A stretch of 64,000 bases of DNA from Candidatus Nanoarchaeia archaeon (GTDB taxonomy: Archaea > Nanobdellota > Nanobdellia > Woesearchaeales > GW2011-AR4), in assembly GCA_035288865.1 (NCBI GenBank), contig DATDZA010000016.1, positions 3,945 through 67,944 of the forward strand, written 5' to 3'. Positions 5,636 to 5,805 of this stretch are shown here, piece by piece (position 1 is the first letter of the stretch; every line of letters begins with the position of its first letter). The position numbers were made by a program, and so were the translations under genes. Below the pieces are notes generated by a model that was not told the DNA's origin, searched no databases, and saw nothing but the letters and a program-made list of their open reading frames with translations.

Positions 5636-5805
5636 GCCGGGATGGCACAACCTGGTACTGCGTAAGCCTGGAAGACTTATTTACCAGTGAAAGCTTATTT
5701 CCGAAAGGATATCTGGGTTCAAAATTATTGGCGGCTGCAGCACAAAGCATGAGCTTCGTTGCCTGACTTAACACAACCGCTAATCTGAAAGTCCCAGCCC
5801 CGGCG
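5636..5805 (+). tRNA. tRNA-Ser(GGA) precursor gene with two introns: ~18 nt in the anticodon loop (about 5674-5691) and 68 nt in the T-loop at position 59/60 (5724-5791)
   Basis: Cloverleaf read by eye:
- Acceptor GCCGGGA/CCCCGGC, with 6 Watson-Crick pairs plus A7.C66.
- D arm GCAC-AACCUGGUA-CUGC.
- Anticodon stem UAAGC (5663-67) / GCUUA (5693-97); spliced loop CUGGAAA.
- Class II variable arm UU-UCC-GAAA-GGA-UAU.
- T stem CUGGG (5713-17) / CCCAG (5793-97); spliced T-loop UUCAAAU.
- Discriminator G73.

Exons of 84 nt plus introns of 18 and 68 nt sum exactly to 170 nt. TATA-like TTTAAATA lies at 5602-5609 and a T7 run at 5806-5812. The region is visibly more GC-rich than its surroundings. Confidence 0.7.

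Follow-up and report, generated by a model that had tools for sequence, protein, structure and literature searches.

A two-intron tRNA-Ser(GGA) gene in a woesearchaeal genome and the conserved 16S-complementary segment of its T-loop intron

In the 64,000 nt window analysed here, which is part of the genome of a member of the Woesearchaeota (contig DATDZA010000016.1 of assembly GCA_035288865.1), positions 5636–5805 of the plus strand raise the question of whether a stretch that is passed over by standard tools is a tRNA gene and, if so, whether the introns that hide it are anything more than spacers. ARAGORN in its default mode finds no tRNA in the whole window, and the unspliced gene is undetected both with and without the -i option; nor does the unspliced gene match in Rfam, at either the gathering threshold or the E-value threshold. 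A first-pass annotation, made from the sequence alone, had read the stretch as a tRNA-Ser(GGA) gene split by two introns, one in the anticodon loop and one in the T-loop. The comparisons presented here indicate that this is almost certainly a bona fide two-intron tRNA-Ser(GGA) gene, and that its T-loop intron contains a segment complementary to 16S rRNA, which was absent from the earlier account of the intron. Genomes, contigs and loci are referred to by working labels (G, C and L, respectively), with G000 being the genome that includes the window, and the features of the gene are collected in Table 1.

When both introns are removed in silico, which was the check proposed with the first-pass annotation, the remaining 84-mer is called as tRNA-Ser(gga) by ARAGORN. 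It has the cloverleaf of a class II tRNA-Ser, with a 7 bp acceptor stem, a D arm, a 5 bp anticodon stem closing a 7 nt loop with U33 and A37, and a 5 bp T stem with the T-loop UUCAAAU. The anticodon is G5670, G5671 and A5672, within exon 1, and the long variable arm of exon 2 (UCC-GAAA-GGA) appears as UUUCCGAAAGGAUAU between the anticodon and T stems, its 3 bp stem covarying among species (47–56: UA 16, CG 1). The discriminator after the acceptor stem is G73 (G5805), and CCA is not encoded after it. All of the sequence statements of the first-pass annotation hold, including the sum of 84 + 18 + 68 = 170 nt, the TATA-like box, the run of seven T residues, and G73. At the base of the acceptor stem, A5642 is opposite C5798, an A7·C66 mismatch where the congeners have A-U or G-C; this may be a true variant or a consensus error in the metagenome-assembled genome (MAG).

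Orthologues of the gene were recovered from 31 congeners and aligned in spliced form. All 31 reduce to 84–85 nt by in silico splicing, and they carry from one to three introns (three in 19, two in eight, and one in four) at five sites: the T-loop in 29 orthologues, the anticodon loop in 25, the D-loop in 20, the region of position 8/9 in two, and position 29/30 in one. Intron 1 is absent from six of them (L004, L008, L062, L067, L079, and L099), where the anticodon loop is a contiguous CUGGAAA, and it is exchanged for unrelated introns of 10–51 nt in other congeners. L009 and L013 lack intron 2, their T-loop being an uninterrupted UUCAAAU. L009 is called as tRNA-Ser(gga) by ARAGORN -i without any editing, with a 13 nt intron at 37/38. 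The natural empty sites match exactly both of the junctions predicted for the window, and on this comparative evidence from congeners the structure of the gene is that given in Table 1. In the cloverleaf of the 17 distinct spliced orthologues, 95.3% of cells are paired and eight pairs have compensatory changes, with all five helices represented. None of 500 shuffles is as good as this, and controls in which the partner strand is slid have 25–47% of cells paired and 0–1 compensatory pairs.

It might instead be argued that there is no functional tRNA here, the locus being a decaying pseudogene or else the 108 amino acid open reading frame (ORF) on the minus strand at 5529–5855, since the window copy has the A7·C66 mismatch, intron 1 has a relaxed bulge-helix-bulge (BHB), and both ARAGORN and Rfam are silent on the unspliced sequence. 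The silence of Rfam says little, because the RF00005 threshold, against which only unspliced forms were scored, is also not reached by L009 and L013, the orthologues that have the 37/38 intron alone. Against a pseudogene is the conservation and covariation of the orthologues, as well as the fact that no second GGA isoacceptor is found in this genome (91% complete). The ORF, which the first-pass annotation had already considered dubious, has no match to any NCBIfam family, and conservation of a minus-strand frame is ruled out by the intron length differences between species, which are not multiples of three. A pseudogene or coding sequence at this position is considered to be highly improbable.

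The two introns of this tRNA-Ser(GGA) gene differ in how closely they follow the BHB geometry. In intron 1, CUGG (5668–5671) pairs with CCAG (5684–5687), leaving 5 nt (5688–5692) before the anticodon stem. Its register is ambiguous because of a GAA repeat, there being four registers, from 5671–5688 to 5674–5691, which give an identical product. There is no intron-side helix and the strict BHB geometry is not present, such that the relaxed (hBH-type) class is the only one into which the intron falls. If both cuts were canonical and symmetric, the anticodon loop would be 9 nt long, and one cut must therefore fall 2 nt off the canonical position. Intron 2 has the strict BHB arrangement, with a central helix of UUCA (5718–5721) and UGAA (5786–5789), bulges of 3 nt each, AA/A (5722–5724) and AG/U (5790–5792), where the slash marks the junction, and the T stem CUGGG/CCCAG (5713–5717/5793–5797) as the outer helix. 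The intron-side helix (A5727–G5734 with C5777–U5784) follows past a 2 × 1 internal loop and is perfect in L002, and by this geometry intron 2 is a near-canonical BHB in which the h' is slightly relaxed. The first-pass annotation had described both introns in these terms, including the ambiguous junction, 5 nt bulge and relaxed BHB of the first and the 59/60 site, central helix and bulges of the second; its description of the latter as textbook geometry is adjusted here to near-canonical, given the offset by the internal loop. The long hairpin with a G·U pair that it had seen within intron 2 is the helix referred to below as P1, with the pair G5730·U5781.

Minimum free energy (MFE) folds of the orthologous T-loop introns agree in having P1, a long stem, beside the BHB and a hairpin (P2) farther in, with unpaired nucleotides linking P2 to the 3' strand of P1. 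In an RNAalifold analysis of 18 sequences, 8 of the 15 pairs have compensatory changes, all of which are in P1. The 16-mer GUUGCCUGACUUAACA is invariant in 17 of the 18 aligned introns, while the rest of the intron varies in both sequence and length. Within P2, the 5' strand varies among species and the 3' strand, which belongs to the invariant core, does not.

The core (5755–5773) forms 18 Watson-Crick pairs and one G·U pair, the latter at U5755, with the 16S rRNA of congeners. From 5756 to 5773 it is an 18 nt perfect reverse complement of 16S from G041 and G047, where the 16S sequence, as also in G018, reads ...CCUGUUAAGUCAGGCAACGAGCGAG..., and orthologues that have GCUUGUUGCC reach 20 bp with 16S. 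Through the location of the 1100 primer site, we take the target to be approximately E. coli 1088–1106/7, in helix 37 and the 3' strand of helix 35. Nowhere in the genome is there a longer antisense match to genus 16S than the core, and no other stretch of at least 17 nt is antisense to mature congener 16S or 23S. Antisense matches of 13–20 nt elsewhere were set aside, being at chance level or within rRNA insertions.

The 3' half of the core, 5763–5773 (11 nt, CUGACUUAACA), is predicted to be single-stranded. Averaged over 26 orthologues, the probability of being unpaired reaches 0.68 in this seed, compared with 0.36 across the intron as a whole and 0.22 in the portion belonging to P2, and linear and circular folds of the intron agree on the accessibility of the core. 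The predicted duplex of the core with 16S has an energy of -34.5 kcal/mol, against -11 to -14 kcal/mol for the core with the exons of its own tRNA. The latter energies are at the level of shuffled controls, and pairing of the core with the exons was rejected. The core is modelled as exposed, at least in its 3' half.

A trans-acting antisense role on 16S is the most likely explanation of the core. The excised and probably circularised intron would pair in trans with nascent or mature 16S as an antisense RNA without boxes, and may in this way influence the assembly or activity of the small subunit; this is proposed tentatively, its probability being judged to fall a little below even. A more specific version, in which the intron is a stable, probably circular, box-less antisense RNA on helices 37 and 35 of 16S (~1088–1106) that might serve as a chaperone or brake in assembly of the small-subunit head, or as a ribosome-bound regulator in the Woesearchaeota, is more doubtful than this. 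Both the pairing in vivo and its effect are what we infer from the complementarity and conservation of the core. No description of a conserved anti-16S element in a tRNA intron was found in the literature searched.

Table 1. Features of the tRNA-Ser(GGA) gene, numbered from the first base of the window
Feature	Position	Strand	Description
TATA-like box TTTAAATA	5602–5609	+	~30 nt upstream of the 5' end of the tRNA; from sequence
tRNA-Ser(GGA) gene	5636–5805	+	170 nt: exons of 38 + 32 + 14 nt (84 nt) and introns of 18 + 68 nt
Exon 1	5636–5673	+	acceptor 5' strand, D arm, anticodon stem 5' strand, loop positions 32–37
Intron 1	5674–5691	+	18 nt, anticodon loop 37/38; relaxed BHB
Exon 2	5692–5723	+	A38, anticodon stem 3' strand, variable arm, T stem 5' strand, T-loop 54–59
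Intron 2	5724–5791	+	68 nt, T-loop 59/60; BHB
P1, intron-side helix of intron 2	5727–5734 with 5777–5784	+	includes G5730·U5781; MFE folds of orthologues
P2, hairpin of intron 2	5737–5762 (5737–5741/5758–5762 and 5745–5748/5753–5756)	+	supplies, with its 3' strand, the 5' half of the core
Anti-16S core UUCGUUGCCUGACUUAACA	5755–5773	+	antisense to 16S 5'-UGUUAAGUCAGGCAACGAG-3'
Exon 3	5792–5805	+	U60, T stem 3' strand, acceptor 3' strand, discriminator G73
T7 run	5806–5812	+	directly after discriminator G5805

The features flanking the gene are shared with its relatives. In congeners, the orthologous gene is accompanied by TTTATAAA at about the same spacing, and T-rich runs are also present at the gene end in the orthologues, where the T7 run of the window, judged from its sequence, is likely to be an archaeal terminator.

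The folds described above also bear on an explanation in which conservation of the core is due to a function in cis or to binding of a protein, for instance in the folding or recognition of the pre-tRNA or of an intron ribonucleoprotein (RNP), the match to 16S reflecting common ancestry only. The P2 hairpin takes up half of the core, and the U-to-C change in L264 improves P2 while weakening the canonical pairing with 16S, both of which would be expected from such a role. However, it is only the non-antisense strand that varies in P2, and the single-stranded half UGACUUAACA is equally invariant with no partner predicted for it in the intron or exons, where the duplex energies are no better than those of the shuffled controls. 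By our own estimate (9 kb of rRNA, both strands, over 4^17), a 17 nt match to rRNA would arise by chance at ~5e-7. A role in cis or in protein binding is regarded as unlikely.

The distribution of the core extends well beyond this genome. Of the 43 genomes of the genus, 31 contain the 16-mer with no more than one mismatch, two of them only through their own 16S, such that 29 carry the intron core, and in most of these the 16-mer is invariant. Outside the genus, the core occupies the identical site of tRNA-Ser(GGA) in two further genera of the family, as well as in two further families of the order. In G047, G186, and G174 the core and its exact 16S complement are found in one genome. A degenerate pattern applied to metagenome contigs gives 41 further copies in a tRNA-Ser(GGA) context, of which 39 are canonical, and a degenerate T-loop pattern applied to 235 high-quality genomes of the order finds only the canonical core. 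There are four distinct core variants, three of them A-to-G changes that keep a G·U pair with 16S; the argument that substitutions are only of the wobble-preserving kind was dropped, as the fit of three out of four is not significant. Taken together, these alignments show that the core is complementary to 16S and is under purifying selection. Genome G049 has a second core match with one mismatch (CUUGACA) at G049:C52:5615-5630(-), in addition to its canonical copy in the tRNA-Ser intron.

Conservation on this scale is difficult to reconcile with the core being a fossil of intron mobility, a sequence that was once in the 16S gene, or was exchanged with it, and then moved to the T-loop of tRNA-Ser, where it has no present function. 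Such an origin has its attractions. In a 16S gene, intron segments complementary to the exons would help to build the BHB, and in this genus the exchange of BHB introns between rRNA and tRNA genes is clear, as in the 'AACCUUUU...AAAAGCUUGACCAAAAG' intron family, which is found in the 16S of G041 and G047, in the G051 tRNA-Ser(GGA) at the T-loop site, and within one tRNA of the present genome. Several congeners have, in addition, lost the core without replacement. A relic should decay, yet the 16-mer is invariant across genera, in three families, and in 39 of the 41 metagenome copies, within an intron that has otherwise turned over in sequence and length. The core is also outside both the BHB and P1, and there is no intron at the position of its target in any 16S gene examined. 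The movement of introns between rRNA and tRNA genes would fit an rRNA-related origin of the core but leaves its conservation unexplained, and a functionless fossil is an improbable account of it.

Two families of inserted sequence were encountered around rRNA and tRNA genes in the course of these comparisons. One is a family of BHB introns, AACCUUUU...GCAAAGAAAAGCUUGACCAAAAG..., which is inserted in 16S at ~E. coli 790 in G041 (L034) and G047 (L035), is the intron at T-loop 59/60 of tRNA-Ser(GGA) in L079 (G051), and is found in this genome at G000:C11:~860-960(-) and G000:C8:42802-42817(-), inside one tRNA gene and next to another. This distribution points to traffic of introns between rRNA and tRNA genes. 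The other is a palindromic hairpin of ~30–45 nt (GCGAGUGAGCUCGUUGCGAACUCGCUCAC) that is inserted in a 16S gene, in tRNA introns, and in the variable-arm region of a tRNA, its sites being G000:C29:2086-2130(+), G000:C17:420-459(+), 206–250 of the G047 16S, and the T-loop introns of L018, L012, and L105. It looks like a miniature mobile element.

Complementarity to 16S within an intron would also suggest a known type of modification guide, either box C/D, as in the haloarchaeal pre-tRNA-Trp, or H/ACA, directing 2'-O-methylation or pseudouridylation of 16S at ~1100. The genome encodes fibrillarin and Nop5, the succession of stem, internal loop and stem is superficially like an H/ACA pocket, and there is a CUGA inside the core. 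The motifs of these guides are, however, not in place. A C box (RUGAUGA) is present in no orthologue and there is no conserved terminal D box, the 3' CUGA of the window copy being UUGA in most orthologues and belonging to the BHB helix, and the internal CUGA being within the duplex and CUGG in G015. The continuous duplex of 18–20 bp far exceeds the 10–12 nt of a C/D guide. For a bipartite H/ACA guide, the 5' side of the internal loop would not be expected to vary in sequence and length as it does, nor the complementarity to continue into the upper stem, and there is neither a 3' ACA tail nor a match in Rfam. Both the box C/D and the H/ACA readings of intron 2 were rejected on these motif grounds, and a guide of either class is very unlikely.

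The genome in which the gene resides is 1.46 Mb in 53 contigs with 36.7% G+C. ARAGORN finds 7 tRNAs in it without the intron option and 23 with it, and 19 are over the cut-off in Rfam, such that most of the tRNA genes are disrupted. A scan for the T-arm pattern shows that position 59/60 is interrupted by an intron in at least 11 tRNA genes, each having the UUCR/YGAA helix and 3 nt bulges, with intron lengths of 14–88 nt; one of them, tRNA-Gly, is also in the window, at ~29022 (G000:C16:32966). The T-loop 59/60 position is a hot spot for introns in this lineage. At G000:C29:~2050-2230(+) there is an undetected class II tRNA-like gene with the anticodon loop CUGAGAA (GAG) and discriminator G73, a candidate Leu or Ser tRNA, which has the palindromic hairpin element described above in its variable-arm region and a 30 nt intron at T-loop 59/60.

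The enzymes that would be needed for splicing are encoded. There is a single alpha-type EndA gene (197 aa, with the N and C Pfam domains, on G000:C17), close relatives of which are in MAGs of Candidatus Woesearchaeota or Nanoarchaeota, mostly from groundwater, and its best relative of solved structure is NEQ205, the catalytic subunit of Nanoarchaeum equitans (NEQ; 3iey_A, 2.3e-36). A basic loop of the NEQ type, L3, near the catalytic His has been proposed to widen the specificity of EndA (PMC3488258), its residues in NEQ205 being K93, K94, K96, and R97. The local sequence in the present EndA, VKPGEDH, matches that of M. jannaschii EndA in length, and none of the specific loop inserts (CSL/L1, ASL/L2, or L3) is recognised, L1 and L2 being judged by length alone. 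The C-terminal Trp is kept (...YECRWLRP aligned with ...IEVSWKKP of NEQ), a residue associated with RNA recognition in crenarchaeal and nanoarchaeal alpha subunits (PMC3488258). The first-pass annotation had suggested that the type of endonuclease gene be looked up and had expected an enzyme of broad specificity. This expectation is borne out in part, in that the Trp is retained in the one alpha-type EndA, and in part is not, as the NEQ-type basic loop is lacking. The EndA gene, whose product has a Lys-rich N-terminal extension, is divergent from a gene for an RNase Z-like metallo-beta-lactamase (L021:1474-3066, on G000:C17), and thus two tRNA-processing enzymes adjoin.

RtcB is encoded on C49 (554.8 bits). 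The match, G000:C49:4496-5842(+), reads through one in-frame TAG, and the first 26 positions of the profile also match 2.6 kb upstream, at C49:1773-1850(+); this could be due to an intein, an insertion, or a split gene.

With EndA and RtcB genes present, a pathway may be proposed for the tRNA-Ser(GGA) gene by analogy with established archaeal tRNA splicing. Transcription from the archaeal TATA promoter would give a 170 nt precursor, in which the single alpha-type EndA would cut at two BHB sites, the relaxed one at 37/38 and the near-canonical one at 59/60. RtcB would then join the three exons into an 84 nt class II tRNA, to which CCA would be added afterwards. The best explanation of the locus as a whole, and one that we regard as very probable, is a tRNA-Ser(GGA) that is spliced by EndA and RtcB at both sites and has a T-loop intron that is something beyond a mere spacer.

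Several observations weigh against this explanation or parts of it. On the side of splicing, the window copy has the A7·C66 mismatch in its acceptor stem, intron 1 requires a cut 2 nt from the canonical BHB position, no EndA paralogue or beta subunit is found at E ≤ 10, and in the alignment the EndA has a 6-residue gap opposite KKGKRSER of NEQ, in place of the basic loop. On the side of the T-loop intron, the assembly of the window has no 16S gene, the target sequence having been taken from congeners. The core is degenerate in G041, an unrelated mobile intron is present instead in G051 and another intron in G003, G018 and G010 have no T-loop intron at all, and in none of these five genomes is there a second copy of the core elsewhere. 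The 16S target is invariant wherever the core occurs, and five genomes of the same order that have a variant 16S have no matching core. Finally, the fourth core variant, the U-to-C change of the metagenome copy L264, would create a C·A mismatch to canonical 16S and strengthens P2.

In yeast, free tRNA introns act through base complementarity, and Haloferax has a tRNA fragment that binds to the small ribosomal subunit; in both, by-products of tRNA processing serve as trans-acting RNAs. The organisms and the species of RNA in these cases differ from intron 2, and we know of no conserved rRNA-antisense intron among them. To our knowledge, the prevailing view of archaeal tRNA introns is that they are neutral or selfish, with one accepted trans-acting example, the box C/D intron of pre-tRNA-Trp. 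The intron-encoded box C/D RNP of the haloarchaeal pre-tRNA-Trp was reportedly described by Clouet d'Orval in 2001. In the account of Singh 2004, as cited in PMC4090602, this is likewise a box C/D intron. The resemblance to intron 2 is that of a tRNA intron doubling as a base-pairing guide that would be able to act in trans once excised. The pre-tRNA-Trp intron has C, D', C', and D boxes, is at 37/38, and targets the tRNA itself, whereas intron 2 is box-less, is at 59/60, and has 18–20 nt of complementarity to 16S.

Multiple introns at non-canonical sites of tRNA genes are, as the first-pass annotation stated, characteristic of some archaeal lineages, being known in both DPANN and the Thermoproteales, and this gene adds another member. 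The multiple-intron tRNA genes of the Thermoproteales (Sugahara et al. 2007, 2008; reviewed in PMC4033280 and PMC4090602) likewise contain as many as three BHB introns each, at both canonical and non-canonical positions; standard tRNA finders do not detect them, and the introns undergo gain, loss, and transposition from one gene to another. Unlike these, the present case is from the DPANN Woesearchaeota, with a small genome of low G+C and a single alpha EndA without the crenarchaeal loop, and has a T-loop intron that holds a conserved anti-rRNA segment. Closer in lineage are the disrupted tRNA genes of DPANN with alpha4 or epsilon2 EndA, such as the pre-tRNA-Cys of ARMAN-2 with its T-loop intron (PMC3239211, PMC3488258, PMC5829648), which share with this gene a setting in ultrasmall archaea that have many non-canonical and multiple introns, in the T-loop among other sites. 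The EndA of this genome differs from those of ARMAN-2 and NEQ in the alignment by having no L3 basic loop, and these papers report no conserved content of the introns (PMC3239211, PMC3488258, PMC5829648). The alpha4 EndAs in DPANN, including those in Woesearchaeota, go with heavy disruption of tRNA genes and unpredictable tRNA sets (Kaneta et al. 2018, PMC5829648). Incomplete tRNA sets were reported by the same authors for both Woesearchaeota and Pacearchaeota, with hidden disrupted genes expected (PMC5829648).

The tRNA-Ser(GGA) gene accounts for part of the 'missing' tRNA set in the MAGs of Woesearchaeota, and its orthologues document the gain, loss, and replacement of introns at five sites within one genus. 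With a core that is invariant across families, exactly complementary to a universally conserved segment of rRNA, and predicted to be accessible, the T-loop intron suggests that there is a second class of regulatory RNA borne by introns, one without boxes. If the proposed antisense role is true, a tRNA intron would be doing a job like that of a small nucleolar RNA without C/D or H/ACA proteins, and the processing of tRNA would be linked to the biogenesis of ribosomes in organisms with very small genomes.

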